Part shown: in pieces, positions 23,301 through 57,500 of the stretch | Layout: every line of letters begins with the position of its first letter | How positions within the stretch are numbered: the stretch's first letter is position 1 | Source: Eledone cirrhosa | Taxonomy: Eukaryota | Reading direction: 5' to 3' | Length of the DNA stretch: 64,000 nt | Assembly (NCBI GenBank): GCA_964016885.1 | Contig: OZ024745.1 | Location: 13,826,001-13,890,000 of the forward strand | The notes under the pieces: generated by a model | What the model was told of the DNA's origin: nothing | The model's input: only the letters and a program-made list of their open reading frames with translations | The model's database searches: none | Program-made: the position numbers and the translations under genes

Positions 23301-26300
23301 AATAGCAGGCTAAATGTATTGTAGCATTCTCTTATGTCTCTTTATATTCTGAGACCAAATTCCTACCAGATTTGATTTGGCTTTCATCTTTTGTTTAAGA
23401 TTGCTGAAATATTTGCCAGTAGAACAGCTGGATTGATAACATTATCTAACCCCCCCCCCCCCCCCCCCCCCTTACAAATTAACTGGATACCCTCCCCTTA
23501 CAAATTATCTGGACACCCTGCCCTTACAAATTATCTGGACACCCTGCCCTTACAAATTATCTGGACACCCTCCCCTTATTCATTATCTAGACACCCTTCC
23601 CCTCACAAGTTATCTACAAACTCTTTCTCCTTAAAATGATCTGGACATGTTCTTGTTTAGTTTAATGGCCCTAACAAACATGTATGCTATGGTGGTATGC
23701 ATGTTTGTTATATCCTATCAAACTCCAGTTTTTTAACACTTTTACTATTTCCAGTTGCCATCCCTTCCTCTCTCACTAGTTGCCACCCCTTCTTCTACCA
23801 CCAGTTGCCACCCTCTTCTTCTACCACCAGTTGCCCCCCCCCTTCCTCTACCACCAGCCCCCCCCCTCTCTACCACCAGTTGGTACCCCCTCCCTCTACC
23901 ACCAGTTGGCACCCCTTCCTCTACCACCAGCCAGTCAAACACCATTTAATCTCTCTTTAAGGGATAAAGCCTGAAACTTTACACCTATTTTTATTGGAGA
24001 TTCCTGAAACCCTGATTTTGAATAATTTGTTGTTGACAACACAAACCCTTACCATTCTTTCTGACTTCTCAATTTACCCTATCATTGAAGCTAATATTTC
24101 TGAGAATGTCAACTTATATTCTTAGTATCCAAAATGCACTCTGAGCTGTACTGGTGGTGTTATTAGTGTTGAATCACTGTAATTTTGATGTACAGTTGCT
24201 GTATTAGTGTTTATCATTGATTGATCAACAGTTACAAACATATATATAAATATAAATTCTCAAAGTTCTTTCATCACATATTTCTGTGACATTTTCAGTG
24301 ATTATTGCTGTTTTCACCCGTTGTGTTTCTATTACATTTTTTGTGGGGTGGTTGACTTTGTTTGTGCATGCAAAACAAATATATCGCCGCCAATAAGAAT
24401 TGTATAAGTTTTAAAATCTATTATTATTATTTTTCAGGTATATCATTTTCTTTTATATGATTTACAAGCCCGTGGCTATGTTAGACCATTTTGTATGGCT
24501 TACGTCTCCCCTGACTCCAAGTAAGTTCTGCTATTTTACAGATATAATAAACTATTAGTCTTAGATGTATATCAGTAATCAGTAACTCTTTTGGATGCTG
24601 GTTGGTTTGTTTTACCGTTTTGTGGGCCAACGTGAATAAAAGATGGAACCATGACCATACAAGGCTATGGAAACAACTTGTTTTCTAATTATTGTGTATA
24701 CTCGAATATAAGCTAAGGAATATGTGACCCCCCCCCCCCCCAAAAAAAAAAATCGCGGGGGGGGGTGTCTTATATTTGGGTCAATATTTTGGCAATTTTC
24801 ACCAACTTCCAATTCTATGTAAATAAGGTTGGGATTTATGCCCATTTCTCAGACATAAAATTAGTGGGGGTCACCTTAAATTCGAGTATATTTTTCATAT
24901 ATATTTTCAGATAAATTTTTCATTATAAGCATTTAACATTGAATACATGTTTTTTCAATAAAACAAATATTCTTTTGGTTCATTCGTTTTAGAAAATCAA
25001 AATATTTACTATATAAAATCTTGCACCTGGGCAAACAATTGAAAAAAAATTCCTTTTATTAATACATATAAATATGTATATATTAATATATATATTTATA
25101 TATACATATTAATATATATATATTAATATATGATATTGATTGATTTGAAGCTACTGCAAAATTGAATTGTTTTTTTAATATTGAGTTTTATTGTTCACTA
25201 ACCAAAGATAAAGAAAATAACACATTTTTGTATGCAATGTCACATATTTAATGATGACTACGGGCTGGATTTGGCCCTGGGGGCTACAGTTTGTCAACCT
25301 CTGATGTAAATACTGGGGGTGCGTAATTCCTTTATTGTAAACTTCCCCTGACTTTAAACAATCTGTGGTTGAGTAAATGGTACAGTTGGTTCAAAGATCT
25401 GTAACTCAGAAAATGATACAGTTGGTTCAAAGATCTGTGACTCAGAAAATGGTACAGTTGGTTCAAAGATCTGTAGCTCAAAAAATGGTACAGTTGGTTC
25501 AAAGACCTGTAGCTCAGTAAATGGTACAGTTAGTTCAAAGATCTGTAACTCAGAAAATGATACAGTTGGTTCAAAGATCTGTGACTCAGAAAATGGTACA
25601 GTTGGTTCAAAGATCTGTAGCTCAAAAAATGGTACAGTTGGTTCAAAGATCTGTAGCTCAGTAAATGGTACAGTTGGTTCAAAGACCTGTAGCTCAGTAA
25701 ATGGTACAGTTGGTTCAAAGACCTGTAGCTCAGTAAATGGTACAGTTGGTTCAAAGACCTGTAGCTCAGTAAATGGTACAGTTGGTTCAAAGATCTGTGG
25801 CTCAGAAAATGGTACAGTTGGTTCAAAGACCTGTAGCTCAAAAAATGGTACAGTTGGTTCAAAGATCTGTAGCTCAGTAAATGGTACAGTTGGTTCAAAG
25901 ACCTGTAGCTCAGTAAATGGTACAGTTGGTTCAAAGACCTGTAGCTCAGTAAATGGTACAGTTGGTTCAAAGATCTGTGGCTCAGAAAATGGTACAGTTG
26001 GTTCAAAGATCTGTAGCTCAGAAAATGGTACAGTTGGTTCAAAGATCTGTAGTTCAGTAAATGGTACAGTTGGTTCAAAGATCTGTGACTCAGAAAATGG
26101 TACAGTTGGTTCAAAGACCTGTAGCTCAGAAAATGGTACAGTTGGTTCAAAGATCTGTAGCTCAGTAAATGGTACAGTTGGTTCAAAGATCTGTAGTTCA
26201 GTAAATGGTACAGTTGGTTCAAAGATCTGTGACTCAGAAAATGGTACAGTTGGTTCAAAGATCTGTAGCTCAGTAAATGGTACAGTTGGTTCAAAGATCT

Positions 26301-29300
26301 GTAGCTCAGAAAATGGTACAGTTGGTTCAAAGATCTGTAGCTCAGAAAATGGTACAGTTGGTTCAAAGATCTGTAGCTCAGTAAATGGTACAGTTGGTTC
26401 AAAGATCTGTAGTTCAGTAAATGGTACAGTTGGTTCAAAGATCTGTGACTCAGAAAATGGTACAGTTGGTTCAAAGATCTGTAGCTCAGTAAATGGTACA
26501 GTTGGTTCAAAGATCTGTAGCTCAGTAAATGGTACAGTTGGTTCAAAGATCTGTAGTTCAGTAAATGGTACAGTTGGTTCAAAGATCTGTGACTCAGAAA
26601 ATGGTACAGTTGGTTCAAAGATCTGTAGCTCAGTAAATGGTACAGTTGGTTCAAAGATCTGTAGCTCAGAAAATGGTACAGTTGGTTCAAAGATCTGTAG
26701 CTCAGAAAATGGTACAGTTGGTTCAAAGATATGTAGCTCAGTAAATGGTACAGTTGGTTCAAAGATCTGTAGTTCAGTAAATGGTACAGTTGGTTCAAAG
26801 ATCTGTGACTCAGAAAATGGTACAGTTGGTTCAAAGATCTGTAGCTCAGTAAATGGTACAGTTGGTTCAAAGATCTGTAGCTCAGAAAATGGTACAGTTG
26901 GTTCAAAGATCTGTAGCTCAGAAAATGGTACAGTTGGTTCAAAGATCTGTAGCTCAGAAAATGGTACAGTTGGTTCAAAGATCTGTAGCTCAGTAAATGG
27001 TACAGTTGGTTCAAAGATCTGTGACTCAGAAAATGGTACAGTTGGTTCAAAGATCTGTAGCTCAGTAAATGGTACAGTTGGTTCAAAGATCTGTAGCTCA
27101 GAAAATGGTACAGTTGGTTCAAAGATCTGTAGCTCAGAAAATGGTACAGTTGGTTCAAAGATCTGTAGCTCAGTAAATGGTACAGTTGGTTCAAAGATCT
27201 GTAGTTCAGTAAATGGTACAGTTGGTTCAAAGATCTGTGACTCAGAAAATGGTACAGTTGGTTCAAAGATCTGTAGCTCAGTAAATGGTACAGTTGGTTC
27301 AAAGATCTGTAGCTCAGTAAATGGTACAGTTGGTTCAAAGATCTGTAGTTCAGTAAATGGTACAGTTGGTTCAAAGATCTGTAGCTCAGAAAATGGTACA
27401 GTTGGTTCAAAGATCTGTAGCTCAGAAAATGGTACAGTTGGTTCAAAGATCTGTAGCTCAGTAAATGGTACAGTTGGTTCAAAGATCTGTAGCTCAGTAA
27501 ATGGTACAGTTGGTTCAAAGATCTGTAGCTCAGTAAATGGTACAGTTGTTTCAAAGATCTGTAGTTCAGTAAATGGTACAGTTGGTTCAAAGATCTGTAG
27601 TTCAGTAAATGGTACAGTTGGTTCAAAGATCTGTAGTTCAGTAAATGGTACAGTTGGTTCAAAGATCTGTGACTCAGAAAATGGTACAGTTGGTTCAAAG
27701 ATCTGTAGCTCAGTAAATGGTACAGTTGGTTCAAAGATCTGTAGCTCAGTAAATGGTACAGTTGGTTCAAAGATCTGTAGTTCAGTAAATGGTACAGTTG
27801 GTTCAAAGATCTGTAGCTCAGAAAATGGTACAGTTGGTTCAAAGATCTGTAGCTCAGTAAATGGTACAGTTGGTTCAAAGATCTGTAGCTCAGTAAATGG
27901 TACAGTTGGTTCAAAGATCTGTAGCTCAGTAAATGGTTCAGTTGGTTCAAAGATCTGTAGCTCAGTAAATGGTACAGTTGGTTCAAAGATCTGTAGCTCA
28001 GTAAATGGTACAGTTGGTTCAAAGATCTGTAGCTCAGTAAATGGTACAGTTGGTTCAAAGATCTGTAGCTCAGTAAATGGTACAGTTGGTTCAAAGATCT
28101 GTAGCTCAGTAAATGGTACAGTTGGTTCAAAGATCTGTAGCTCAGTAAATGGTTCAGTTGGTTCAAAGATCTGTAGCTCAGTAAATGGTACAGTTGGTTC
28201 AAAGATCTGTAGCTCAGTAAATGGTACAGTTGGTTCAAAGATCTGTAGCTCAGTAAATGGTTCAGTTGGTTCAAAGATCTGTAGCTCAGTAAATGGTTCA
28301 GTTGGTTCAAAGATCTGTAGCTCAGTAAATGGTACAGTTGGTTCAAAGATCTGTAGCTCAGTAAATGGTTCAGTTGGTTCAAAGATCTGTAGCTCAGTAA
28401 ATGGTACAGTTGGTTCAAAGATCTGTAGCTCAGTAAATGGTACAGTTGGTTCAAAGATCTGTAGCTCAGTAAATGGTTCAGTTGGTTCAAAGATCTGTAG
28501 CTCAGTAAATGGTACAGTTGGTTCAAAGATCTGTAGCTCAGTAAATGGTTCAGTTGGTTCAAAGATCTATATTCTTGACATTTGGCATCAGTTCAAATTC
28601 TACTACTAGTAGTGTTCTTTATAATTTCTTTCATGCCTGTCTTTCTCTAAGTGAAAGTCCAACCCATGCTAGCATGGCAAATAGGACATAAAAATGGTGA
28701 TGATGCTTACTAAATATTTGTTTTTCAGGAAACTGATAACATTTTATAAAGAAATCCACAAAGCATTTTCTAAAGTAAGTATAATTTAAAAATTAATTAA
28801 TACACACTAATTAAATCCTAAAATTCAGTAAAAATATTAATTATTTGTTAAATTATTTATTTTTCAGGTGTTGAGGATAATAATAATAAAAAAACGGCTG
28901 TTATAATTTCAAATTATTATTATTATATTCAAACACATGACAAGCCATATTGATCTCATGTTGACAGAAGAGTCCATTATCAACAAATAATATAGATCAT
29001 ATGTTGATGGAATAGTCCATTATCGGCAAATAGTGTGGATGTCCTATTGATGGAACAGTCCACTATCAGCAAATAATACTGATCTTATATTGATGGAACA
29101 GTCCATTAATAACAAATAGTGTTGATGTCATATTGAGGGAACAACTCATTATAAACAAATAGTGTAGATGTCCTGTTGATGGAACAGTCCATTATCAATA
29201 ATTGTTTCTACTTTTGGCACAAGGCCAGCAATTACCCAGTGCATTACTGGTACTATAATGGTTGACTATACTAACAGAAGTGTTAGTTCTAGACATAGTA

Positions 29301-38300: not shown

Positions 38301-39324
38301 CATCTCATTCCATTTCTTTTCACAACATTTATCATTAGCTCTATTTGTATCATCCTCTACAATTCATTGTTTATCTTCTTCGTCCTGAGCAATACTCCCC
38401 CTCATCTACTGAACCATTCTCACCCCCATACTTTCCATCTGTCTTCATCTTCATCATCCATGTCTCACTCCCATAAATAATCCCATTTCTCAGGTATGCA
38501 GCAAACACTAATTATTCCATAGTGCCATTGTTACCATCACCATTATCCACCACTGCTACCATCATCACCACCATTAACACCACCACTGTCACAATCACCA
38601 CCACCATCATCACCACCACTGCCACAATCATCACCACCACAGCCACAATCCTCACCACCACCACAGCCACCACTGCCACCATTACCATCCACCTCCACTG
38701 CCACCATCATCACCCCCCCCCCACACACACACATTCAACTCCATTTCCACAATCACCACTACTCAGCATTCTCACATACTTCAAATGATAATCTCATTCT
38801 TGTAAAATCTTAACATTCTCTTCTCAATGTCCATTTATATATATATATATATTTGTTTCTCTTCTATTCCAGTACTATAGCCAAGATTTAGCCATCTTGA
38901 AAATGCATCAATGGGAAAAGAATCTAACTGGTAAATTTCCTTATAATTATATTTAAAGCATGTTTGTGAAGTTGCTTGGCTTTTTTTAAATTCCTCCAAG
39001 CTAAATTCTGTGCTCAATCTTTTTTCCTGTAGGACTACATCTGAGTAATATTCTCTTGTTGGCCAGGCATGAATAATTTCAAACTGAATATTTACTGCTG
39101 CACTAATCTCATTTAGTCATCCCTATTTCCCGACCTTTCTTCCCAACAAACTTATAAAACTAGGAAAATGGAAATTATTACATTCATGTTTTTTCCTAAG
39201 GAAATTTATGATCTGAAAGAAATGAAAAGATTTGAATTATGTTTCAAAACTGTTGCAGACTCATTTAATTTTAGATACTTCCCAATACTCACTATGAATA
39301 TATATATATACATACATATGTATG

Positions 39325-39362
<38 letters not shown>

Positions 39363-42300
39363 GAGCAAGACACAGTCACCCAACCAATCTTGCCTCAAGT
39401 GGGACAAACCCGTCTAACCCATGCTACAGTGGAAGACAGACGTTAAACGATATATCATCATCATCATTTAACGTCTGTCTTCCACACTAGCCCATGCTAG
39501 TGTGGAAGACAGACGTTAAATGATGATGATGGGTTAGACAAGTTTGTCTCATTTGTATAGGACTGTTTCTGGCTGGTTTTCTGCCACTGGATGCCCTTCC
39601 TAGCGCCAACCACATTTACAGCGTGCTTTTTGCCATGTCTCAAACACAACCACTTATGCAGCAAAAATGTCTGTGAGAAGGAAGATAGAAAAAAGAGCTA
39701 ATTTACGATTTTTATTTATTTGTCATGATTCATGGACATAAGATGTATTGTGGTACCTTAGATTTCAATGCCTAGGTATGGCCACAACTGTACGCGGAGT
39801 TGTAACCATACCTAAGATAGTGTTATAAAATCTTACAGGTATCAATCATAATAATAAATGATATATATACATATATATATATATTAGGTATAGGATTACC
39901 CAAGATGTAGTAATGGTTAATTACTACACTGGATATGGTTGACGTACGGTGAGAGGTTACTCTACGAGTTATGGAAGAATTGTTGACGAACTTAGTTCCT
40001 GATCCTTCTGTATTCCGGAGTGTATATAAAGAATGAATAATAACAGGTAGACATCATAAAAAGGTAATTTATTCCGTGTGCTTACAAATGTTTCCACAGT
40101 GGTACTACAGCCTAGTTATGCTATGTGCTAATTTACAAGAATTTGCAGAACTCAAATATCCAATGCTGTGACCACTGTATCCTCAGAGCAGAATGGTAAA
40201 ATGTACAATGTAAATACCCTTAAGTGGGGTTGTTGGGAAAGATAGAGTAGAAAAGGAAGAGAGAAAAGTAGGGGAGAGGGAGAGAGAGAGAAAGATGTGC
40301 AGGGGTTGGAGAAGTAGGAGAGAGTGGTTTGTAGATATCTTAATCAAAATGTTATGGTAGGGGTTTTATTATACTGGTTACTTTTGGAGAGATGCGTTGA
40401 TAGTTAAGGTTGGAATTATTTATTGCCCCAGAGGGCAGGTTCATAGATGTGGAGAGGGAGGTAGGCCAAAGGCAAGAGAGAGAGAGTGTAATGGATGTAG
40501 AGACAGAGGCAGAGAGGGGACAGACGAAGTTTATGTGGTGAGTGAACTTTGGGTTTGTAGTAGTAATCTGTGAATTGCACTGAGTTACCATTTATAGTGA
40601 TAAACAGTGTATTGTCTTGTAGTGTGGGGGAAGAGAAGGTGGTTAGCTAGAAAGCGATGTTATAGTTACGGGTTCAAATGTTAAGTTATTTTATAGTGAG
40701 AGAATTTAGCTTTTAGTTTGTGGTTGCAGTATAATGATCGTTCAATTCTATCGTTAAGTAGTTTGTTTTTGGATTTTAATATGTAAAAGAGTTCAAGGTT
40801 ACATAACCTGCAGTATTTCAATCCACTCCGATATGCACTTGCGCTGGAAAGTATATCCCATTTTAAGGTGAACTGTTGGTTGCGTTCACGGAGTTGCCAG
40901 GTCTTGGCGAGCGTGGTCACAAAACGGTGCTTAGGATGTTTGATTGAGAATCGATGACGGTACCAGCGAGATTTAAACGAGGTGGTGGTAGATCCGATAT
41001 AATACCATTTCTGGTCGTTCGATTCAACCGTGCATTGGTAAACAATGTTGGACTTTAGGCATTCATTCTTCAATGGATATCTTTCAGGTAGATGGCAGTT
41101 ACATTCTTTGTTGTGGGTAGCGGGTATACCATGGATAGGTTGTGATAGCGGTACAGGTGGAATGTGTAATACCCGTCTCCCATTTAGTGGTTGGGAGGCA
41201 GATATTACGTTCTGCCCATCTGTTACTAAGATGTTTTGTTTTGTAGAGTTGTTTAATTGCCTTAAGTTAAGTTTTTTTATGTATGCTTCAAGGTTTGGTG
41301 CCGTGGAGTATGATAGTCTAATAGTTTTAGAGTTCAGAATTTTGCTGTATTTATGGGAACTAGGGAAATGTTTGTTGATTAACTTAAAGAATGAAAGAGA
41401 TAGTTTTGTACTAATCGAGGCATTAAAAATAGGATTGTACCAGATATACTTTCTACAACGTGATTTATTTAGTGGTGATTTTCTATTATTAGTATGTCTG
41501 GTAGTACTGTGTGTGTGCGCTTGTATTTTAGTCCCCCGGTTACGTATTCCTTAATTTCGTGTAGAGCTATGTGTGTTATGGAAATTCCTATCAATGTATT
41601 CTATTGTATCCCGGTGGTCGGCCTTCCTTAATGCATTATTGTAGTATTCAGCGTGTTCACTAAAAATATCAGAGTTAGACGATAGGCGAGAGATTCTAAG
41701 AGAAATACTCCGGGGAACTGATTTGATCATGGAGAGTGGGTGGTTTGAGTTAAAGTTAATATACGTAAGGTTCTCATTCATCTTGTGGAAGGGTCGTATC
41801 TGTCCGGTATATAAATTAAGAGTTACGTCCAGAAAGTTTACTACTTTAAGATTGTATTCGTATGTTATTTTTAGACCCAGTTCACTAAAAGATTTTCTAA
41901 TATTTTTCCGTAGCCTTTCAAGATTTTGGTTATTCATGTTATTAACTAATAAGAGCCCGTCATCTCTGTATATCCCCCCCTGTAGATTACTAAATTTACT
42001 ATGTAATATGTGGGCTATGTAAATTCCCACGAGATCCGTGACCTCCGCTGAGTCGTTGGAACCCATGGTAATGTCGAAATTTGTGGGTCTGTCCTTACGT
42101 TCCCAGTAGCAGTTATCAAACTTAATAATGGTTTTTCTAGCCTCGAGAATAATGTTAATTTCGTCCTCCGTTAGGTCGGAATTGACCCTAGCAAACGATA
42201 GGGCCTTACGTAAAGTGCTTGGTGAGATGGAAGAGTAGTATTCGTCTATGTCAAATTGTATAAAGTTTATACAATTTGACATAGACGAATACTACTCTTC

Positions 42301-44281
42301 CAGACGAATACTAAATTTAGTAATCTACAGGGGGGGATATACAGAGATGACGGGCTCTTATTAGTTAATAACTTGAATAACCAAAATCTTGAAAGGCTAC
42401 GGAAAAATATTAGAAAATCTTTTAGTGAACTGGGTCTAAAAATAACATACGAATACAATCTTAAAGTAGTAAACTTTCTGGACGTAACTCTTAATTTATA
42501 TACCGGACAGATACGACCCTTCCACAAGATGAATGAGAACCTTACGTATATTAACTTTAACTCAAACCACCCACTCTCCATGATCAAATCAGTTCCCCGG
42601 AGTATTTCTCTTAGAATCTCTCGCCTATCGTCTAACTCTGATATTTTTAGTGAACACGCTGAATACTACAATAATGCATTAAGGAAGGCTGACCACCGGG
42701 ATACAATAGAATACATTGATAGGAATTTCCATAACACACATAGCTCTACACAAAATTAAGGAATACGTAACCGGGGGACTAAAATACAAGCGCACACACA
42801 CAGTACTACCAGACATACTAATAATAGAAAATCACCACTAAATAAATCACGTTGTAGAAAGTATATCTGGTACAATCCTATTTTTAATGCCTCGATTATT
42901 ACAAAACTATCTCTTTCATTCTTTAAGTTAATCAACAAACATTTCCCTAGTTCCCATAAATACAGCAAAATTCTGAACTCTAAAACTATTAGACTATCAT
43001 ACTCCACGGCACCAAACCTTGAAGCATACATAAAAAAACTTAACTTAAGGCAATTAAACAACTCTACAAAACAAAACATTTTAGTAACAGATGGGCAGAA
43101 CGTAATATCTGCCTCCCAACCACTAAATGGGAGACGGGTATTACACATTCCACCTGTACCGCTATCACAACCTATCCATGGTATACCCGCTACCCACAAC
43201 AAAGAATGTAACTGCCATCTACCTGAAAGATATCCATTGAAGAATGAATGCCTAAAGTCCAACATTGTTTACCAATGCACGGTTGAATCGAACGACCAGA
43301 AATGGTATTATATCGGATCTACCACCACCTCGTTTAAATCTCGCTGGTACCGTCATCGATTCTCAATCAAACATGCTAATCACCGTTTTGTGACCACGCT
43401 CGCCAACAAGACCTGGCAACTCCGTGAACGCAACCAACAGTTCACCTTAAAATGGGATATACTTTCCAGCGCAAGTGCATATCGGAGTGGATTGAAATAC
43501 TGCAGGTTATGTAACCTTGAACTCTTTTACATATTAAAATCCAAAAACAAACTACTTAACGATAGAATTGAACGATCATTATACTGCAACCACAAACTAA
43601 AAGCTAAATTCTCTCACTATAAAATAACTTAACATTTGAACCCGTAACTATAACATCGCTTTCTAGCTAACCACCTTCTCTTCCCCCACACTACAAGACA
43701 ATACACTGTTTATCACTATAAATGGTAACTCAGTGCAATTCACAGATTACTACTACAAACCCAAAGTTCACTCACCACATAAACTTCGTCTGTCCCCTCT
43801 CTGCCTCTGTCTCTACATCCATTACACTCTCTCTCTCTTGCCTTTGGCCTACCTCCCTCTCCACATCTATGAACCTGCCCTCTGGGGCAATAAATAATTC
43901 CAACCTTAACTATCAACGCATCTCTCCAAAAGTAACCAGTATAATAAAACCCCTACCATAACATTTTGATTAAGATATCTACAAACCACTCTCTCCTACT
44001 TCTCCAACCCCTGCATACCTTTCTCTCTCTCTCCCTCTCCCCTACTTTTCTCTCTTCCTTTTCTACTCTATCTTCCCCAACAACCCCACTTAAGGGTATT
44101 TACATTGTACATTTTACCATTCTGCTCTGAGGAAACAGTGGTCACAGCATTGGATATTTGAGTTCTGCAAATTCTTGTAAATTTGCACATAGCATAACTA
44201 GGCTGTAGTACCACTGTGGAAACATTTGTAAGCACACAGAATAAATTACCTTTTTATGATGTCTACTTGTTATTATTCATT

Positions 44282-44336
<55 letters not shown>

Positions 44337-44415
44337 ATCATCATCATCATCGTTTTTACATCACTTTTTTCTATGCTTGCATGTATAAGCCAAACCTGTA
44401 AATAAGGCGTGTGTG

Positions 44416-44446
<31 letters not shown>

Positions 44447-44487
44447 TATATATATATATATTAGCGTGGAAGATGGACGTTAAACGA

Positions 44488-44521
<34 letters not shown>

Positions 44522-45245
44522 TCGTTTAACGTCTATCTTCCACGCTAATATATATATATATATATAAGACTGGCTTGAATTCTAAACCAGAGCTTAGAAG
44601 GACCATCACCAATGCTTAAAAACAATATAGATGATTACTATCAATTAATAATCACATATAACTGCATTGTCTTTTTTGTCTTGTTGATAACCTGTTTGTA
44701 TTTCTTAGAACCAACTTCATCTTTACTAACATTTGGAGGATGTGTTACAAGCAATTTCCTTCATGGAATGCATAGGTAAGAAGTTTCTACCTTCACATTT
44801 GTTTATATTCAATTTATGAAAACCTTTCTAAACCTGAGTTTGAAACCATTAAAACAGACACATTATTCCCTAAATACCTGTAGATAAGGTATATACTTGT
44901 GTATAAGTCACACCTGTAGATAAGGTATATACTTGTGTATAAGTCACACCTATAGATAAGGTATATACCCATATATATGTCACACTAGTAAAGGTATATA
45001 CTTGTGTACAAGACACACCTGTAGATAATGTATATACTCATGTTTAAGTCACACCGTTAGATGAGGTATATACCCATGTATAAGTCACACCTGTAGATAA
45101 GGTATATACCCATGTATAAGTCACACCTGTAGATAAGGTATATAGTCATGTATAAGTCAAACCTGTAGGTATGTTGCATCCTCATTTTACATACAACATT
45201 CTTATCACACTTATACATAAAAATATATATATATAGTACTTATAC

Positions 45246-45290
<45 letters not shown>

Positions 45291-48200
45291 CTATACATGA
45301 ATATATATATAGTACTTATACATGAATATATATATAGTACTTATACATGAATATGTATAGTACTTATACATGAATATACATATATAGTACTTATACATGA
45401 ATATATATATATAGTACTTATACATGAATATACATATATAGTACTTATACATGAATATATATATAGTACTTATACATGAATATGTATAGTACTTATACAT
45501 GAATATATATATATAGTACTTATATATATATATATAGTACTTATACATGAATATATAGTGAAGAGTTTAGCGTAAAAGTCGGCGTCCATCAGGGCTCTGT
45601 TCTCAGTCCACTACTATTTATTATTGCCCTTCAGGCTATAACAGAGGAGTTCAAGACAGGCTGCCCATGGGAACTCCTATACGCAGACGACCTGACACTC
45701 ATAGCGGAATCAATGGCCGAGCTAGAGAAGAAATTCCAAACATGGAAGCACGGCCTAGAGTCAAAAGGACTTAAAATTAACCTGGCTAAGACCAAAGTAC
45801 TAGTTTGTAGGAAAGAAAACAAGGCGGCGGTCCCTTCGGGGAAATGGTCGTGCTCGGTGTGTAGGAAAGGCGTAGGTAGAAACTCCATTTTATGTCCTAA
45901 ATGCAAAGTATGGGTGCATAAAAGATGTAGTGGGATCACAGGTAAGCTAACTAAGAACATAGATTTTACATGTGGCCGGTGCTCTGGTGCAATAAGTAGC
46001 AGCAAGTGCCCACAAACTACTAGCTCTTTCAATTGCGCAGAGGGTTCTATAGAAATAGTGGACAGCTTCCGTTACCTGGGCGATAAAATCAGCAGTGGGG
46101 GAGGGTGCTCTGAAAGTACTGTAGCTAGAGTCAGAACTGGTTGGAAAAAGTTCAGAGAGCTTATACCACTATTAGCTGCTAAAGGGTTCTCACTAAAAAT
46201 GAAAGGCAGGTTGTACGATGCCTGCATACGAACAGCAATGCTGCATGGCAGTGAGACCTGGGCATTGTGTGCAGAGGATATACGCAGACTAGAGAGGAAC
46301 GAAGCTTGCATGCTCCGCTGGATGTGTAACAGTAATATACGTGAACGGCAAAGCATAAACGAACTAAGGAATAAATTAGAGATAAGAGGGATCAGATGTT
46401 GTTTACTCGAGAGAAGGCTACGTTGGTATGGACACGTGATGCGCATGAAAGTCGATAGCTGTATAACAAAGTGCAGGGCAATAAAGATAGACGGTAGTCA
46501 CGGAATAGGCAGACCTAGAAAAACCTGGGACGAGCTGATAAACTCCGACATCACACACTTACACCTCTCCAAGACAATGTCACTGGACCGAGACCTTTGG
46601 CGGTACTCAGTAACAGAGAAGACCCGCCTTACCTAAATATATAGTAAAACCTACTCCAGCCAGTAGGCATCTCTAACAAAATACACCCCGTCCCACCACC
46701 CCCACCCCCACCCGATCCACACCACCCCGTTCTATGTAAAGTTATGTTGGTGCCGCGCCATCGAGGCCGAAACAAATGAGATCGTGTAGGTGTCACGACA
46801 AAAAAACACACAGTCCACGCTGTAATGTGGCCGTGTAGGCAACACGGTAAAAACCTCCCAGACCCACACTGTAAATGTGGTTGGTGTTAGGAAGGGCATC
46901 CAACTGTAGAAAACCTGCCAGACAGTCCTATGCGAGCAAGACAATCACTCTTGCCTCAAGTGGGACTACCCCCGTCCAAACCCATGCAAGCGTGGAACAC
47001 GGACGTTAAACGTTGATGATGATGATGATGATGATGATATATAGTACTTATACATGAATATATATAGTACTTATACATGAATATATATATAGTACTTATA
47101 CATGAATATATATATATATAGTGCTTATACATGAATATATATATAGTACAGTGAAGGCGTATGGCTGAGTGGTTAGAGAACTGGATTCGCAATCGTGAGA
47201 TTGTGAGTTCGATTCCTGGACCGGGCGATGTGTTACGTCCTTGAGCAAGACACTTTATTTCACGTTGCTCCTTCTACCTGGAGTTGCGACCGATAGATAG
47301 TATTAGCAATTGGAAAGACCAATGGAAACACTGTTTCCTCGGTCCGATTTGATGAAAGTCGATCGTTAGGAATCGTTAGGATATATAGTACTTATACATG
47401 AATATATATAGTACTTATACATGAATGTATATAGTACTTATAGTTGAATATATATAGTACTTTATTTCTTATGTGTGTTTTATAGTTTGGCCATGTAGAT
47501 TGTCTAAGATATAACTCAGTGATTCCCCTCCTATTTTCCAGGTGTTACTGTGAAAAAGAACGAGGAATAGCCAAACATCGACTTATATCAAACCATATGG
47601 AAAAAGTATCAGTTTCTGAAGATCAGCCTGTCCAAGTAAGTAAATTACTGAGAGTTTTTCATTGGAATATATTGGGTATCATCAACATCATCACCATTTA
47701 ATGTCCATTTCTCCACACTAGCATGGATTAATAAGAAACTGTAAACTTCTATTTTGCCCCACAACCATTTTGATTTTATAAAGATAACATTGATAATGTT
47801 TTCTGAGTACCAGTAACGCACTGGGGTTCAATTTAATCAACTTTTCCTTCCCCCAAATTATTGGCTTTGTGCCAAACGTAGAAACAATTATGTGTATGTC
47901 TATTAATGTGTGTGTGTATGTGTGTCTGTGTGTGCATGCGTGTGTGTCTGTGTTTTTACAATGTATTGTTGAGCTGTATCTACCCCATTCCTATTAGATG
48001 GTTTAAGTATTCCAAGTTTATACCTGCACATACACACATACATGCATATACATGCACATATACACACACCTGCATTCTTGTGTTATATTTCTAAGTATTC
48101 CAAACTAATACCTGCGCACACACACACTCACACATTCACACATCTGTCTTCTAATTCTATACTGTTTCTAAGTTTGTGACATTTTGCTAAAATACTAATC

Positions 48201-51099
48201 CTAATTGCATGTTTACCTATTTTATGAAAATATAGGCCCTATTGATGTACTATCCCCTGATTCCATCTTCAGGAAACATTTTTCAGTTACCAAATTATTT
48301 TTCAGTTCAGTTATACAGATAATGGTCAAGATATTCTTACCAGCTTCCTGCAGTACACTCTTGAAAACTTTGTATTTTTTATCAAACAATTAATTGTTAC
48401 CATTCCGGTTTGTAATTCCATTTTATGTCCTAAGGCTTGGTTTTTCTCAAATTTAATGAGTTTTATCTTATCTTTTAATTTCTGTCTATTTGGGATGTTT
48501 ATTTTCATATTTGAGGGTTTGAAATTCTATCTGGAATATTTTATTCTGTTTATCTGCTTTTTTAAAAAAAAATCTTTTCCTTTATTTTGGCCTGATTAAT
48601 GGTGTTTTAGTCTAATATTGGTGTTCTTTTTCTTCTTCTTCTTCTTCTACTTATTCCTGGGAGGATTTCAGGGGACAGAGTCCTCTTACACTCCTTTCAA
48701 CAGGTCCTGTCAGAAGCAACCATATCCAATTTATCTGGCTGGATCCCCAAGCAGGACCAACCAGCCAAGCTCATGGATGTTATTCAACCATCTACCTCTG
48801 GGTCTCTAGCCCTTTGGTTTTGCCCATAAAATCTGTCTCGTGATTCTAACCACATGATGTTTATTAAGAAAATATTCTCTTCTCCACTGTGATATCTTAT
48901 TTTCTCAACTGACACAATAGTCATGAGAACCAAGATATAAAATAAAATTATTTATAGAGAATGTTTTTATATAAAGTTCTTATGTTTTACTTGTATATAG
49001 GCTGAGAAATATGTGACAATATTTACCATGTATACTTGTATATAAGCTGTTAAATATAGGACAAAAAAATTGATGGTAAAATGGAGGTTAACTAATATTT
49101 GAGGTCAATATTTTGCTGATTTTCACCAACTTCAAATTCTCTGTAAATGAGGTGCTACAATATTTTCACTCTCAAAGTGAATATTACACTGGTTTCACTT
49201 TGGTTGCAAAATTATTTGTATTTTCTATTGTTTTTTTATATTTTGAATGAATATGGCCTTCAAAATAGTTGGAAATTGGTAAAATATCATTACCTAATGG
49301 TGTTCTGAAACAAAAACCATACTCTAAATGACACTTTAAGTATTTTAAATATTAACTATCAAAATATTAAAACTCATCGATATATTCTCCACTCATGAGA
49401 ATTTCAAAACATATTGTGTTGATTATCTGCCTCGGCTTATAAACAAGGTTGGGGGTTTTACTTATTTCTCAGACATAAAATGGGGAATCAACTTATATTT
49501 GGGTATATATGGTATATTTATTATACACTGGTATAGAACCCTATATGATATGAATTTTTACCCATTTCTCAGACATAAAATAGAGGGGTCAGCTTATATT
49601 CGTATCAGCTTATATTTGAGTATATACAGTACATCCACTATAGTGTGGTATAAAACCTTATATGATATTCAGTTCTTTACTTCAACTATTCAAAATATGT
49701 AGCATTTGTGATTAAATATAACATATAGCATTTACGATTAAATATAACATGTAGCATTTACGATTAAATATAACGTGTCTATGATTAAATATAACATGTA
49801 GCGTTTATGATTAAAAATAACACGTAACATTTATGATTAAATATAACACGTAGTGTTTATGCTTAAATATAACACGTAGCATTTATAATTAAATATAACA
49901 TGTAGTGTTTATGATTAAATATAACATGTAGTGTTTATGATTAAATATAACAATTGTGTTTCTATTTTATATTCTTAATTTTTCATTTGAAACAGATTTT
50001 GAAATTAATTTCCTCTTCCTGAAGTTTATGTCTGTTTTTTAATGTTTAACCTTTGTTACCATATTTCTTGTGAAAGACACTAATAATATGCTTTTAAAAA
50101 AATACTGAAAATAACCAAGAATTTGGAGAATTTGATAGTATAACTAACATTCTCATTAATAAGATAGTCTTTGAAACAGCATAACCCTTTAGCATTTACA
50201 TTATTCTATATTTACTATTGTATTTTCATTGTAAAGGCTTTATCTCACATAATATTGAATCTACGAGATTTTGATATTTATTTTGAGAACAATACCTTAA
50301 CATCAGTATGAGTGGCCGGTTACAGCTGGTTGGAACAGAAAGAAGTGAGAGAATTCTGGCCGGATATGGCCGGTTTAAATGCTAAAGAGTTAACCAATTT
50401 TCTTACATAAATTTATGATGGAAGGCTTTTTAGATAAATATAAACACTTTACAACAAACAGTTTAGTATCAGAGAACAAGGGCCAGTTTCAGGCAGTTTG
50501 GTATCAAATGGGTTAAACACCAACAAATTTCTTCAATAAATTCTTCCTTAACTTATAACATCCTGTAATGGTTTAACAGTAAATATCTAAAAAATGGATT
50601 TGTTAATTCAAATGTTTCTAACACATTTTCTATTGGACAGATCATTATGAAAATGCGAAATATTAGAGTAAGGACTTTAATATTTAATGAAATGACATCA
50701 TAGTTCTGTTGAAAATTTACACTGTTTAAATGTACAAAATATCTAGATATATAACAGCAAGTCGGTCTGTGTGTGTGTGTGTGTGTGTCTGTCTGTGTAC
50801 AAATACTAGGCTCCTTTTAACTTTTGAAGTACTAGGCCGATTTCAACCAAATTTGGCACACATATAGCTTATATGAAAAAATTGGATATTGGGGCCGAAA
50901 AATCGATTGTTTTTGTACAAGCTACCCCATGAATTGTTTTTATGTTGCTGTTTATTTCACTCAATCATGTCACTGTACACCCATTTTGTTAAACTTTTTT
51001 TTACAATTACATTTCAATTCTTTGCTCAACCTTTGGCTCTCTTTATACGGACAAACAGGCTGTCATTCATTTCCCGAGCAACGCCGGGTACATCTGCTA

Positions 51100-51139
<40 letters not shown>

Positions 51140-54100
51140 CGTAGTTAAGAAAGCCACAACAATGCAGAGGGAAATCTCGAGGTAGGAAGTGAAAGATAGA
51201 TAGGAAAAACAGGTGAAAGTGAAAATTGAGAGAGACAAAGATGAAAACAAAACAAAGGTAGAAGGGTTACCGTAGTGGAGATTTAATCCCAATATTTCGG
51301 GCTCACGCCCATCAACGGGGCAAAGTTCCAAAAGGGGGGGAACAGGCCAAGCGGAGAAAGTTGTGATGTCGTTAAGACAGGAATGCCGTTATGGGGAGAA
51401 AATTATTTAAAATTTAAACGAGGGAAAGAATGCGCGTGCGCGTGATAGGCTGTGGCAAAAGCTACTGACCAAATGGGTTAAATCAAGAGGGTGTGCTAGC
51501 GTGTGAAAGCCGTAAGATATGTGTGTGTAAATATATATGTGTGTGTAACTGTGTGTGTATAAGTGTAAGTGTGTATATGCGTGAGTGTGTGTGTGTGTGA
51601 AAGATAGTGGGCTGTAGAAGCTGGAAATCAAAGGGTGTGAAAGGTGGTAGGTTGTAAGACATGTGTGCGTGTATAAATATAGATGTGTGTGTGTAAGCGT
51701 ATGGGTATACATGTGTGTGTAACTGTGTGTGTATGTGTGAGTGCGTTTGTGTGTGAAAGATAGTGGGCTGTAGAAGCTGGAAATCAAAGGGTGTGAAAGG
51801 TGGTAGGTTGTAAAAACATGTGTGCGTGTATAAATATAGATGTGTGTATGTATGCGTATGGGTATGCATATACGTGCGTGTGTGTGAAGATAGCAGGCCG
51901 TAGGCTGTGAATGGTCACTATGGTTAAGTTAGCCATGTCAGCTCATTTCTCTCAGCCCGGTTGTTAAGTGGGGGTCTGAGGTTCTTAATAACAAGTGCTT
52001 CCTTTATCCTTAAGGATCCGATGCTGCGTTCAGTCGCTAGGACTGTGACCAAGGGTCTACCCTGTGGGTTTCCGCATTTAAGGATGTGTTTACGGAAGGA
52101 AGATGCGTTGGTGTTGATATGTTCCTTGATACGAACATGTAGGGGTCGGATGGTGCTACCTATGTAAAACTTGTTACATTTATCGCATTGAATCTTATAT
52201 ACGACATAGGTGCGTAGGCAATTTGCCCCCCGTATCGGGCAGTTGCTGAGGGAACACGTCCCATCTGACTCGTCGGGTTTGTTGGAGAGGCATCTTCGCA
52301 GCGAAGGTCCTGTGTGGGCCAAATGTATGTCAAGTCCCTCCGTCCGTATGGCCCTGCGGATGGCGTTCGTGGTATATTCACTCAGGTGGGGGATTTTAAA
52401 GAAGCACCTGCTATTATTTAATATTCTAGTGGGTGTCTGTCTATTGGGTCGGGGGTCTCTAATTCCGTTAATCAGTCGCTTGGGATAACCATTAGATCTG
52501 AGTAGATTACGGAATTGCGTGGTATGGGTGAGACCACCCATCGGGTCACTGCATCTGTTAGTGATCCGTGTCAATTCATTAAGGACATAGCCTCTCTTAG
52601 CGTTGTTGGGGAGGGCTTAAAATCCCCCACCTGAGTGAATATACCACGAACGCCATCCGCAGGGCCATACGGACGGAGGGACTTGACATACATTTGGCCC
52701 ACACAGGACCTTCGCTGCGAAGATGCCTCTCCAACAAACCCGACGAGTCAGATGGGACGTGTTCCCTCAGCAACTGCCCGATACGGGGGGCAAATTGCCT
52801 ACGCACCTATGTCGTATATAAGATTCAATGCGATAAATGTAACAAGTTTTACATAGGTAGCACCATCCGACCCCTACATGTTCGTATCAAGGAACATATC
52901 AACACCAACGCATCTTCCTTCCGTAAACACATCCTTAAATGCGGAAACCCACAGGGTAGACCCTTGGTCACAGTCCCAGCGACTGAACGCAGCATCGGAT
53001 CCTTAAGGATAAAGGAAGCACTTGTTATTAAGAACCTCAGACCCCCACTTAACAACCGGGCTGAGAGAAATGAGCTGACATGGCTAACTTAACCATAGTG
53101 ACCATTCACAGCCTACGGCCTGCTATCTTCACACACACGCACGTATATGCATACCCATACGCATACATACACACATCTATATTTATACACGCACACATGT
53201 TTTTACAACCTACCACTTTTCACACCCTTTGATTTCCAGCTTCTACAGCCCACTATCTTTCACACACAAACGCACTCACACATATACACACACATGTATA
53301 CCCATACGCTTACACACACACATCTATATTTATACACGCACACATGTCTTACAACCTACCACCTTTCACACCCTTTGATTTCCAGCTTCTACAGCCCACT
53401 ATCTTTCACACACACACACACTCACACATATACACACTTACACTTATACACACACAGTTACACACACATATATATTTACACACACATATCTTACGGCTTT
53501 CACACGCTAGCGCACCCTCTTGATTTAACCCATTTGGTCAGTAGCTTTTGCCACAGCCTATCACGCGCACGCGCATTCTTTCCCTCGTTTAAATTTTAAA
53601 TAATTTTCTCCCCATAACGGCATTCCTGTCTTAACGACATCACAACTTTCTCCGCTTGGCCTGTTCCCCCCCTTTTGGAACTTTGCCCCGTTGATGGGCG
53701 TGAGCCCGAAATATTGGGATTAAATCTCCACTACGGTAACCCTTCTACCTTTGTTTTGTTTTCATCTTTGTCTCTCTCAATTTTCACTTTCACCTGTTTT
53801 TCCTATCTATCTTTCACTTCCTACCTCGAGATTTCCCTCTGCATTGTTGTGGCTTTCTTAACTACGTATTTTACACATTTCACAATGCTTCAAGCAAACT
53901 TTAACACCCTCTTATATATATATATATATATACATACACACACAACAGTATGTCATTGACTGATGAGAGAAAAGAGTGGTCAATACCAAAGTAGAGTTTA
54001 AATATTCATTTATGGCCAAGTAGTGAGTCTTGTTACCTTTGAGTTTCAAATGCGTACTCTCAGGAACATCAGACAATATGTCATCCACCTTTGTCTCCTC

Positions 54101-54496
54101 CTCATCACCTTCATCATTATAATTTTGCATTGATTTTTCCAATGCATATGGTAAATTGTATTAAGTGGTTGCTTAGAGTCTGGAGAATAATATTTATTAC
54201 CAAGTAGATCCTATTACATCTATGTTTTGTGTTGTGATTTATTTTATCTAGAAGGAAATTGTGAACAAAGTTTCCAGTCTACCAGACCGATATCACACTT
54301 CTCAAGGATCCACAAATATAACACATCCCACAACATTAGCAATATCATCACAACCAACTGATGAATGGGACATCATTACATCTACTTCTGAAGGAGACCA
54401 TGATATTTCCATAGAAACCAGGTAATTATGATGAGAAACTATACAAGTTTCGGGTATGAAATTGGTGTGTATATGTTGTGGCCATGTTTTTAATGG

Positions 54497-54529
<33 letters not shown>

Positions 54530-57500
54530 TATTTTACATCTGTTTTTTCCATGTTGGCATGAGTTGGAGGGGTTCTCACAGTCCAAGACAAAACAGATTT
54601 GAGAAGTATGTCTTGGTTTCTACAGCTGGATGCCCTTACTAAGGTCAACCCACTTTTCAGAGTGTACTAGATGTATTCTACTGTGGTACCAACATTACCA
54701 CTTTACAGAGTGTACTAGATGTATTCTACTGTGGTACCAGCATTACCACTTTACAGAGTGTACAGGGTGTATGTTACTGTGGCACCAACACTACCACTTT
54801 ACAGAGTGTACTGGGTGTATGTTACTGTGGCACCAGCATTACCACTTTACAGTGTACAGGGTGTATGTTACTGTGGCACCAATACTACCACTTCACAGTG
54901 TACAGGGTGTATGTTACTGTGGCACCAATACTACCACTTCACAGTGTACAGGGTGTATGTTACTGTGGCACCAATACTACCACTTTACAGAGTGTACAGG
55001 GTGTACTGTAGTGTGTAAGGATGTCTGTTCATGGTGTGGAAAAGTGTTTTAGGAATTGTATGTAGATCTACCTGTGTCTGGTTTATCTCTGGTGTAGTGT
55101 GGTATATATATATATGTTTGTATGTCTGTATATGTCTGTGTGTCTATCTGTATATGTGTCTGTGTGTTGTGTTTATCTCTGGAGATAGTGTGGTATGTGT
55201 GTGTCTGTATCTGGGTGTAGTGTGGTATATACATATATATGTGTGTGTGTATATATCTATATGTCTATGTGTTTATCTCTGGGGATGGTGTGGTAAGTAT
55301 ATATAAGTCTGCATGTGTGTCTGTCTCAGGATGTAGTTGTGGTATATATGTGTATGTTTAACGAAGGGTATGAATAAGTAAGAAATAGTTAGATGTTGGA
55401 TGAGGTAACATAGTTATTAGATGAAATAACAAGTATAATAAGAATAGGTGTAATAACGAGAATATAAAGAATAAATGATTTGGTTTATATATAGTTTACT
55501 TCACGTGAATCAATTAAAAAGTACATATAAAACAGTTACCAAGAGTTGTTAATGTTGTTATTGTTGTTGATGTGAAAACAGCGAGCAAACAGATAATGTT
55601 GTTGTTGTTGGAGTCCGTGGTAATAGTTGAGGCCATAGTGAGTGAGAGAGGGTAATGGTTTGTATACCTCTGTTATGGTCTGAAATTGGTTGTAGACGAC
55701 TGTGGCTTGTACATGGTCTGTAGTAGTAGGGCTCCAATCTCTCTCTGTGTATCTGTAGACCTCATGGGGTCTGTTGATAGTCGTGAATCTTTCACATAGC
55801 TTGTTCTGTAGTGGGGTGCTCCGATGTCTATTTCTGTAGACCACTGGGGTCTGTTGATAGCAGTGAATCCTTACATAGTTAGTTGCTAGCGTAATGCTCC
55901 GATGTCTCTGGCTAAAGTAGGATGGTACAGGCTCTATATATAGCTGTCACTTCCTGTCTCCCACCTTGACGGGATAGCCAATGCATCAACCTGTTTACAC
56001 CAAAAGGGTGTTGACCTAGAATTTGACCTTTAGGTGTCACCCAAGGTTCAAGGCGCAGACAGATTTCGCTACATATGTATATCTATATACGTATGTATGT
56101 GTCTGTTAGTAATTGTAGTGGGTATATGTGTATGTATATCTGTATGTGTGTGTTATGTGTTTATCTGTGGAGGTAGTATGGTACACATATATGTGTGTGT
56201 ATATCTATATGTGTCTGTGTGAGTCTCTGATTGTTGGGTGGTATATATGTGTATGTATATCTATATATGTGTCACTGGTTGTCTCTCTTGACTCTCTCAT
56301 CTCTCTTATCTACCTTGTAGTTATGAAAGTACTTCCCTTTATTCAACATGCAGTGAACATTCTGATGAGATGCTCTGTGCTCTTTGCCAACACCCTAACA
56401 AAGATGCCACAGCTCCTGATGGTAGAATATTGTCTTCTATTATACTTTAATTATTGAATTAAAATTTGAAAATATGCGACTCCCAAATGGAGAAACTAAC
56501 TGAAATAACTATCACTATAAATAATAGTTTAGAAAATTGGGTAAATTACCCTAGAGACAGAAAAAAGAGAATAAAGCACCTATGGTGTCCATTTTCTTTT
56601 TTGTCTCTAAGGGTAATCTACCTATTTTTCTCAACTATTATCATTATTAATCAATTGTTATTTGTACCTGGCACAACAGATCTTCTCTTCCTTGTGATAC
56701 AGCTGTTGGAGAAGTACCTAGCTAAGAGTAGGCCATTATATTTTAAATTTTAGTATTTGAAACAGCTGCAAGAGAAGTACCTAGCTAACAATAAGCCACT
56801 GTATTTATATTTGTTTAGTATTTGAAGATCTCTAATGGCTTCAAATGAATCAGTGCTCTATATTAATACCTTTGTTAAAAAATGAAAGCCTACGCTGCTG
56901 CAGGTTTTTTTTAGCGGTAAATATTTTCTCACTTTACTAAATGAATAAAACACTGAAACATTTATTTTATTCTATTATGACCACTAGTATATAAGAGCTC
57001 TTATAGACAACATTTTGAATTCCTCTGTTATGTCCTGGAGGGCTATATTGAACAGTAAAGGGATGAGGACACAGCCTTGGTAGATTCCTACATACACACT
57101 ATACTATAGTAATCAACAGTTATTTTATCAGTTTAGGACGCTCACATTTTCAATTTTCAAAGGATTATTAAGTTGAATTAAAAAGATCTTTCTAAATACG
57201 TTATCCCAGAAGTTGGAAACATTTGAGAAAGGCAGACCAGATTAGAAATGTTTCTTTTTTTCTGCCTTCTGGACAAATAAGAAGTAAAAGCTTGATCATA
57301 CAAAGATATGAAGCAAACAAACTGAGTATTCCACTGACACGTATATCCTTAACATAATTCTGGAATCAGTGTTTCACAAGGTTGAACTTTTGAATTACCT
57401 GTCCTGTGCATTATTAAAAAGGCTTCCACACAATTTCTGTCTACCCAATTTCACCCATAAATCTTGATTCCACCCAAGTCTATAGTAAAAGACATTTGCT

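Follow-up and report, generated by a model that had tools for sequence, protein, structure and literature searches.

One tail per pair: head-to-head copies of Penelope-like elements in Eledone cirrhosa and their possible origin by double priming on one RNA

Two inverted pairs in the window

The stretch of DNA described here, further called the window, comprises 64,000 nucleotides of the genome of Eledone cirrhosa (assembly GCA_964016885.1, contig OZ024745.1, positions 13,826,001 to 13,890,000 of the forward strand). It contains two loci, at 39871-44336 and 51101-53932, where two copies of a Penelope-like element (PLE) are joined head to head (Table 1). The elements belong to two families, here named PLE1 and PLE2, and at both loci only one of the two copies, or arms, is extended by a tail, a piece of the next tandem unit. 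A survey of the genome indicates that this is the rule, and below we consider a mechanism in which one RNA is copied twice.

A sequence-only reading of the window had described these loci as near-identical inverted pairs of two unrelated elements, with both 3' ends pointing outward and ending in (TA)n, and with a longer 3' extension on one arm. All of this is borne out. In self-alignments, 40023-42002 matches 44290-42308 for PLE1 with 99.1% identity over 1983 bp (15 substitutions, one 3-bp gap) and 51133-52399 matches 53873-52617 for PLE2 with 98.9% identity (4 substitutions, one 10-bp gap), TA runs are present at all four outer ends, and the open reading frames (ORFs) of both elements face outward from the centres of their pairs. 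The two families give no blastn match with each other, and their best blastp match has an E value of 0.014, with 27% identity over 79 amino acids. The extensions are 138 bp long on the PLE1 left arm and 39 bp on the PLE2 right arm. The possibility that they are flanking DNA was rejected, because both consist of family sequence. What the earlier reading missed is that the extension is the known PLE tail and that the arms are not independent. Its claim of unequal 5' truncation applies to PLE2, of which the left arm reaches 217 bp further than the right arm, but not to PLE1, where the arms meet at the same base in a palindrome and the right arm lacks about 225 bp beyond that point.

The assignment of the tails is based on tandem copies at other loci in the genome, which are labelled L. 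The PLE1 tail sequence is found between the pseudo-long terminal repeat (pLTR) and the ORF in the partial tandem L094, and the 3' ends of the family fall at two discrete points, of which the end of this tail is one; for PLE2 the assignment rests on the full-length tandem copies L144 and L157. In the PLE1 left arm the coding sequence is split into frames 41551-42264 and 40681-41550 by a stop codon between the reverse transcriptase (RT) and endonuclease (EN) regions, which is present in both arms (41551-41553 and 42757-42759), as is a Cys to Tyr change in the linker. A GIY-YIG match was obtained with the right-arm copy (E 0.0012, under the curated cut-off). The left arm of PLE2 has an ORF at 51924-52616 with a GIY-YIG match at E 8e-5.

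The pLTRs of both families contain hammerhead-like motifs. For PLE1 the core was judged by eye against the hammerhead consensus, and stem II is present in the fold of both motifs (z -1.35 for PLE1, z -0.81 for PLE2). An Rfam scan of 39000-55000 gave no hammerhead match, only microRNA-like matches to the perfect hairpins, all under the gathering scores.

Table 1 Features of the two PLE loci in the window (EN, endonuclease; RT, reverse transcriptase; UTR, untranslated region)
Feature	Positions	Strand	Remarks
(TA)n, outer end of PLE1 left arm	39871..39884		
PLE1 tail, 138 bp, left arm only	39885..40022	-	5' leader of next tandem unit, upstream of ORF start
PLE1 left arm	40023..42264	-	part of RT, thumb, CxCx5C-type linker, GIY-YIG EN, 3' UTR/pLTR
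PLE1 head-to-head junction	42228..42302		75-bp palindrome, centre 42265, arms overlap by 2 nt
10-nt copy of nearby sequence, edge of the ~225-bp gap in PLE1 right arm	42303..42312	+	
PLE1 right arm, short 3' end, no tail	42308..44290	+	
Hammerhead-like motif with long stem II, PLE1 pLTR	44123..44234	+	identified by eye; mirror copy in left arm
(TA)n, outer end of PLE1 right arm	44285..44336		
(TA)17, outer end of PLE2 left arm	51101..51134		
PLE2 left arm, short 3' end, no tail	51133..52616	-	thumb, Cys linker, GIY-YIG with CCHH, 3' UTR with ~150-bp repeats, pLTR
PLE2 right arm	52617..53873	+	junction 52616/52617, ~1 nt overlap
Minimal hammerhead-like motif, PLE2 pLTR	53686..53719	+	identified by eye; mirror copy in left arm
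PLE2 tail, 39 bp, right arm only	53874..53912	+	start of next unit; ATG at 53885 and first 9 codons
(TA)10, outer end of PLE2 right arm	53913..53932		

Frequency, orientation and TA anchoring of the pairs

The 3.0-Gb genome was surveyed with exact 20-mers near the 3' ends, which gave 1034 matches for PLE1 and 1154 for PLE2. The first 100 matches per family on one contig (C1) served as the sample and fell into 78 PLE1 and 67 PLE2 clusters. After dropping repeats of one event (L068, L085, L160 and L159) and counting L097 once, 77 and 66 insertions were left. The loci L159 and L161, 0.9 Mb apart, have one PLE2 junction in common, together with some 100 bp of flanking DNA (96.5% identity), and further pairs duplicated together with their flanks are L084/L085, L097 and L220/L221/L227.

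Two outward 3' ends, the mark of a pair, were found in 39 of the 77 PLE1 insertions and 35 of the 66 PLE2 insertions, or in about 44% and 51%, respectively, after a rough correction for double sampling. These counts include L074, L121, L191 and L192, in which the second arm is barely more than a tail piece, and leave out L095 and L199, which have tiny second arms; in all six, the second arm consists of part of the tail or a few pLTR-end bases only. Some of the apparent single copies may thus be pairs with a near-zero second arm.

Neighbouring copies are arranged head to head far more often than tail to tail, with ratios of 19:0 for PLE1, 28:0 for PLE2 and 19:2 for a third family described below, as compared to 4:4 for a control with the 3' motif of a non-PLE retrotransposon, an RTE-type long interspersed nuclear element (LINE) that is present in the window at 45551-47038 and 8438-9810 (Fisher P 7e-4). 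The preference for the head-to-head order is not a matter of chance. A TA run of 10 nt or more adjoins 95 of 111 3' ends for PLE1 and 88 of 101 for PLE2 (L159 included), as against 0.8% of positions taken at random in the window. Of the free 5' ends, 12/34 (PLE1) and 14/29 (PLE2) border on TA, and PLE families pile up within the same TA tracts.

Exactly one tail in each pair

Exactly one tail is present in 38 of 39 PLE1 pairs (P 4e-10, with 19.7 expected) and in 33 of 35 PLE2 pairs (17.7 expected, P 5e-8). The expectation is based on random assignment of the same number of tails, and the pairs were hand-picked from printed tables. A third PLE family was found in flanking DNA (L110:3921-5690 and L208-L227). 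It is Neptune-like, with a Cx4CxxC linker, has 14,260 motif matches, and shows three fixed 3' ends (short, about +46 and about +58). From its first 100 matches 20 candidate pairs were fetched, of which L212 was unreadable, and 18 of the remaining 19 have exactly one tail (9.7 expected, P 1.5e-4); since L220, L221 and L227 are related by local duplication, the number of independent pairs is nearer 17. For the three families together the count is 89 of 93 pairs. Pairs that were recovered whole in separate similarity searches give the same picture, with one tail in 7/7 (PLE1) and 5/6 (PLE2). No count of tails per pair turned up in the literature, subscription papers being mostly outside the search.

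The tail may be on either arm. Over the three families, 36 pairs have it on the arm that is longer at 5' and 32 on the other arm (P 0.72), which disallows simple fold-back; the separate values for longer versus shorter are 7 vs 14 for PLE2 and 8 vs 9 for the third family.

Common subfamily of the two arms and common stops in PLE2

At variable sites that are common in the family, partner arms are discordant at only 11 of 495 sites for PLE1, where 222 would be expected, and at 2 of 352 for PLE2, where 161 would be expected. In this test the expectation was derived from the other arms, and 28 and 38 pairs had enough sites, the window pairs and similarity-search loci included. Alleles that are present in just two arms are 30 to 100 times commoner between partners. 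Many pairs have arms that differ by 0.7-5%, as opposed to young PLE2 mirrors with identical arms.

The 5' ends of PLE2 arms are correlated (Spearman 0.86), and in 10 of 33 pairs they stop within 4 nt of each other, with a permutation mean of 1.1; none of 100,000 permutations reached 10. When a 5'-end hotspot is left out, stops at most 4 nt apart are still found in 7 of 30 pairs (P 1e-5). The hotspots themselves lie 162-172 nt upstream of the short end in PLE1 (16/113) and 255-263 nt upstream in PLE2 (about 14/101), in both cases just downstream of AT-rich boxes, and are likely transcript starts in the pLTR. Five exact PLE2 mirrors are all zero-spacer palindromes with a 2-nt self-complementary overlap. 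Such mirrors would be hard to make by self-folding of a strand, since folding needs a loop and the spacer is zero. Junction gaps range from -15 to +50 nt, and there is no TA tract between the arms. The number of mutations in those parts of an arm that have no counterpart in the partner (265 for PLE1 against 135 expected, 50 for PLE2 against 60) was dropped as an argument because it is confounded by thinner 5' coverage.

A proposed double priming on one RNA

We consider it probable that, after a cut in (TA)n, the two DNA ends both prime on a single element RNA, at the pLTR end in one case and at the tail end in the other. The two 5'-truncated copies at a locus would then represent one insertion, joined head to head. 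One RNA would offer each start site once, and since each site would be usable only once per RNA, the two DNA ends would take different start sites. The cDNA of the leading polymerase would be displaced by the trailing one (no RNase H domain was found). Each polymerase would either run off at the 5' end of the common RNA or fall off before that point, and the cDNA 3' ends could then pair over 1-3 nt, with filling in of the gaps; joining by 1-3 nt agrees with the observed junction overlaps. Extension of one DNA end only would yield a single arm, and the pattern would likely be blurred afterwards by gene conversion between the arms and by deletions at the centre. Double priming on one RNA implies one tail per pair, one source, a common stop, and either arm being the longer one upon drop-off. 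The wider proposition, that asymmetric double priming is obligate in at least three PLE clades, with one RNA copied twice from its two start sites, we regard as evenly balanced between true and false. The sequence-only reading had also suggested that the two ends of a (TA)n cut are both primed and that the two cDNAs are then joined, and this part fits best; its suggestion that this is the default insertion mode does not stand, with pairs in 39/77 and 35/66 insertions.

A number of observations weigh against double priming on one RNA. The likeness of the arms can result from gene conversion: about one quarter of the private changes per arm are common to the partner, and the stop codon of the window PLE1, taken as an exact 20-mer, has two matches genome-wide, both at the window locus. 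Six changes are private to this locus and common to both its arms, for which gene conversion between the arms or a lost source copy may be responsible. Conversion at about the one-quarter level would seem insufficient to erase nearly all subfamily differences. The partner is the closest relative in just 6 of 35 PLE1 pairs and 9 of 36 PLE2 pairs; this nearest-neighbour test is weak on short overlaps and the common-site test was used in its place. The PLE1 arms stop within 4 nt of each other in only 3 of 36 pairs (1.0 expected, P 0.075, not significant), and their tail is preferentially on the longer arm (21 vs 9, P 0.04). The one-tail rule is broken by L103 (two tails), by L140 and L181 (none), and by L221, the sole exception in the third family, with two tails of different length for which two different tail ends were used; L033, from the separate similarity-search set, has no tail on either arm. 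Target-site duplications are not above the shuffled control (0/20; 2/23 vs 2.1), so that a single cut per pair is presumed; there is one candidate of 13-14 bp (L153), and duplications are unreadable in TA. The same literature search, with the limits mentioned above, gave no paper in which a PLE is proposed or shown to copy one RNA twice. Finally, two RNAs of one locus in one dimer would be expected to yield most of the same signs.

This last variant, in which both DNA ends prime on two same-locus RNAs held in an asymmetric protein dimer with different start sites for the subunits, is possible but rather unlikely. It accounts for one tail per pair and for the shared subfamily as well as for the correlated 5' ends of PLE2 arms, and a dimer was predicted for the Anolis Poseidon protein (Frangieh 2024, PMC11167929). 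Yet it leaves the exact shared stops away from the hotspot unexplained, and parallel travel of the two subunits should leave the stops offset by about one tail, whereas just 2 PLE2 pairs are at +40/+41 as compared to 10 near 0. Two unrelated RNAs are unlikely in view of the single tail per pair, the same subfamily and the shared PLE2 5' stops.

About as doubtful is self-priming, in which a cDNA or antisense RNA folds back and is copied to a hairpin or palindrome, after which EN resolves it at the pLTR/tail boundary or a second TA end anneals. An antisense RNA version has been proposed (PMC3846280) and EN resolution was suggested as a source of the tail (PMC8557442). Self-priming would explain why the arms belong to one subfamily and have private changes in common, among them the stop codon of the two window PLE1 arms, as well as the junction palindromes, the short 5' inversions that occur on single arms (L076, L077, L081 and L152) and the lean of PLE1 towards a tail on the longer arm. 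However, the copied strand must nest in its template, while 32 of the 68 unequal pairs, the window PLE2 among them, carry the tail on the arm that is shorter at 5', and in some of these the arms differ by over 1 kb; later central deletions could hide part of this conflict. Zero-spacer mirrors are impossible by snap-back, and both 3' ends correspond to real start sites in vitro (PMC11167929).

The remaining two explanations are both highly improbable. That a TA tract received two insertions independently, or that a rearrangement followed insertion, would be in line with the preference of these families for (TA)n and their accumulation in shared tracts, but is contradicted by the absence of a TA tract between the arms, the exclusive head-to-head orientation, the single tail per pair and the common subfamily. 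An assembly or library artefact caused by fold-back chimeric reads could be suspected from the young PLE2 mirrors with identical arms and because the window junctions are bridged by no listed contig; against this, the arms are 0.7-5% apart in many pairs, including the window PLE1, the outer ends differ by the tail and the flanks differ, and 93 pairs follow one rule. The contig check consisted of four runs on 50300-54600 and four on 42170-42400, with matches mostly to other family copies; among the pieces listed none bridged a window junction and no empty allele appeared, which is no evidence either way. One contig from a second sample (X4), in which 51209 is joined to 53863 across 35 other letters, reads as the head-to-head junction of another PLE2 copy.

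Other repeats in the window and in the fetched loci

Both RTE-type LINEs in the window are 5'-truncated, encode a PHD-like finger, and have their 5' ends at or near AT-rich repeats. Pieces of about 30 bp of RTE-type 3' ends occur in inverted arrangement at 44442-44566, around a TA run, and at 39423-39531, and show that a non-PLE repeat, too, can form small inverted pairs next to TA. At L110:5881-6340 there is a near-perfect palindrome (460 bp, 99%), which has TA in the middle and at either end and has relatives in many fetched loci. The window further contains a 62-bp satellite (12567-21425, 143 copies), related to the RTE 3' untranslated region at 46852-46914, and a 36-bp minisatellite (25361-28568, 89 copies) with three long open frames of over 1000 codons, which are probably not coding.

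Comparison with known elements and insertion mechanisms

Both window loci are new members of known PLE clades. By its motifs, PLE1 is a Hydra-clade element. The protein has YRDD and YIG motifs; the copy L094 carries RWK (RVRWKAF) and DKT (KADKTSN), and in copy L122 the linker is CNCHLPEKC (CxCx5C), followed by CRLC and CNH (CxxC and CxH), with no CCHH. A Pfam search with L122 at a threshold of 0.01 gave no match. The RWK and DKT motifs, the CxCx5C linker, the lack of CCHH, the CxxC/CxH near the EN end, a unit of 3.1 kb (3137 bp as derived from L094) and the (TA)n target are all as described for the Hydra clade, one member of which, Penelope-13_HM, is recorded as having an inverted and 5'-truncated copy at the 5' end (PMC8557442). 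PLE1 deviates by its hammerhead-like motif with a very long stem II, by a unit slightly above the '<3 kb' given for the clade, and by its tail of 138 bp, where 30-40 bp is stated for PLEs in the same paper.

The PLE2 unit of 3444 bp has an intact ORF of 879 amino acids in copy L144, in which Pfam recognizes RVT_1 (E 9e-11) and GIY-YIG (E 3e-4) alone, and no RNase H domain. By its motifs PLE2 is a canonical element with a C-terminal endonuclease (EN+), and in a comparison by eye with printed alignment rows it resembles Nematis. It resembles the canonical EN+ PLEs (Penelope/Poseidon, Neptune and Nematis) in having one ORF with GPKF (209), DKG (326), YVDD and CCHH motifs (CDKC at 793 and two His downstream), a 39-bp tail with the first codons, partial tandems and an inverted 5'-truncated copy. 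The linker, Cx4Cx6C, differs from the formula CX2-5CxxC of Neptune and Nematis, for which reason PLE2 is filed just as canonical EN+, Nematis-like. In both families EN is C-terminal, unlike the N-terminal EN of Naiad/Chlamys, and both show the partial tandems with pLTRs and a tail equal to the unit start that characterize EN+ PLEs (L094 for PLE1; L144, L157 and L177 for PLE2). A tandem at C1:52.92 Mb (L067/L068) was rejected as a PLE1 tandem, being a local duplication.

The layout of the pairs is not particular to this lineage and is no discovery. An inverted 5'-truncated copy, with a tail 'often only at one end', and (TA)n targeting were described by Craig 2021 (PMC8557442), head-to-head was given as the most frequent arrangement, with self-priming as proposed cause, by Arkhipova 2013 (PMC3846280), and the head-to-head layout of Drosophila Penelope is in a figure legend (PMC2377424, Fig. 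1C). The window pairs share with this layout the inverted 5'-truncated copy, the junction palindromes, the tail at one end and the preference for AT or (TA)n. The published accounts are worded descriptions with self-priming and EN resolution; what is added here is a strict, countable one-tail rule across three clades, with a shared source and shared stops.

Biochemically the closest system is the Anolis Poseidon protein, which in vitro cuts and extends both strands of an AT-rich target and uses two internal RNA start sites that bound the tail (Frangieh 2024, PMC11167929). The PLE pairs would have the same features, two start sites bounding the tail and two extended strands. In bulk, no difference in start site between the strands was seen in that assay; inverted pairs and a coupling of the two sites within one event are not treated in the paper. 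The origin of the inverted repeats and tails of PLEs is stated as open in both Craig 2021 (PMC8557442) and Frangieh 2024 (PMC11167929). The possible models are narrowed by the one-tail rule and by the common source and stops of the arms, and a yes/no test is possible in the existing assay. The mechanism is of wider interest since telomerase and the PLE reverse transcriptases are sister groups, and the three families, with 1034, 1154 and 14,260 3'-end motif matches, seed the genome with long palindromes.

A related process is twin priming of L1, reportedly described by Ostertag and Kazazian in 2001, in which two target 3' ends are said to prime on one RNA and the cDNAs to join by microhomology, giving an inversion. 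With L1 the second primer lies far upstream and the two pieces barely overlap, whereas in the PLE pairs the starts would lie 39-138 nt apart at the 3' end, so that the whole copy would be duplicated. If double priming on one RNA is correct, a single step, different from the target-primed reverse transcription of LINEs, would produce the tail as well as the inverted pseudo-LTR and the palindrome at the junction.

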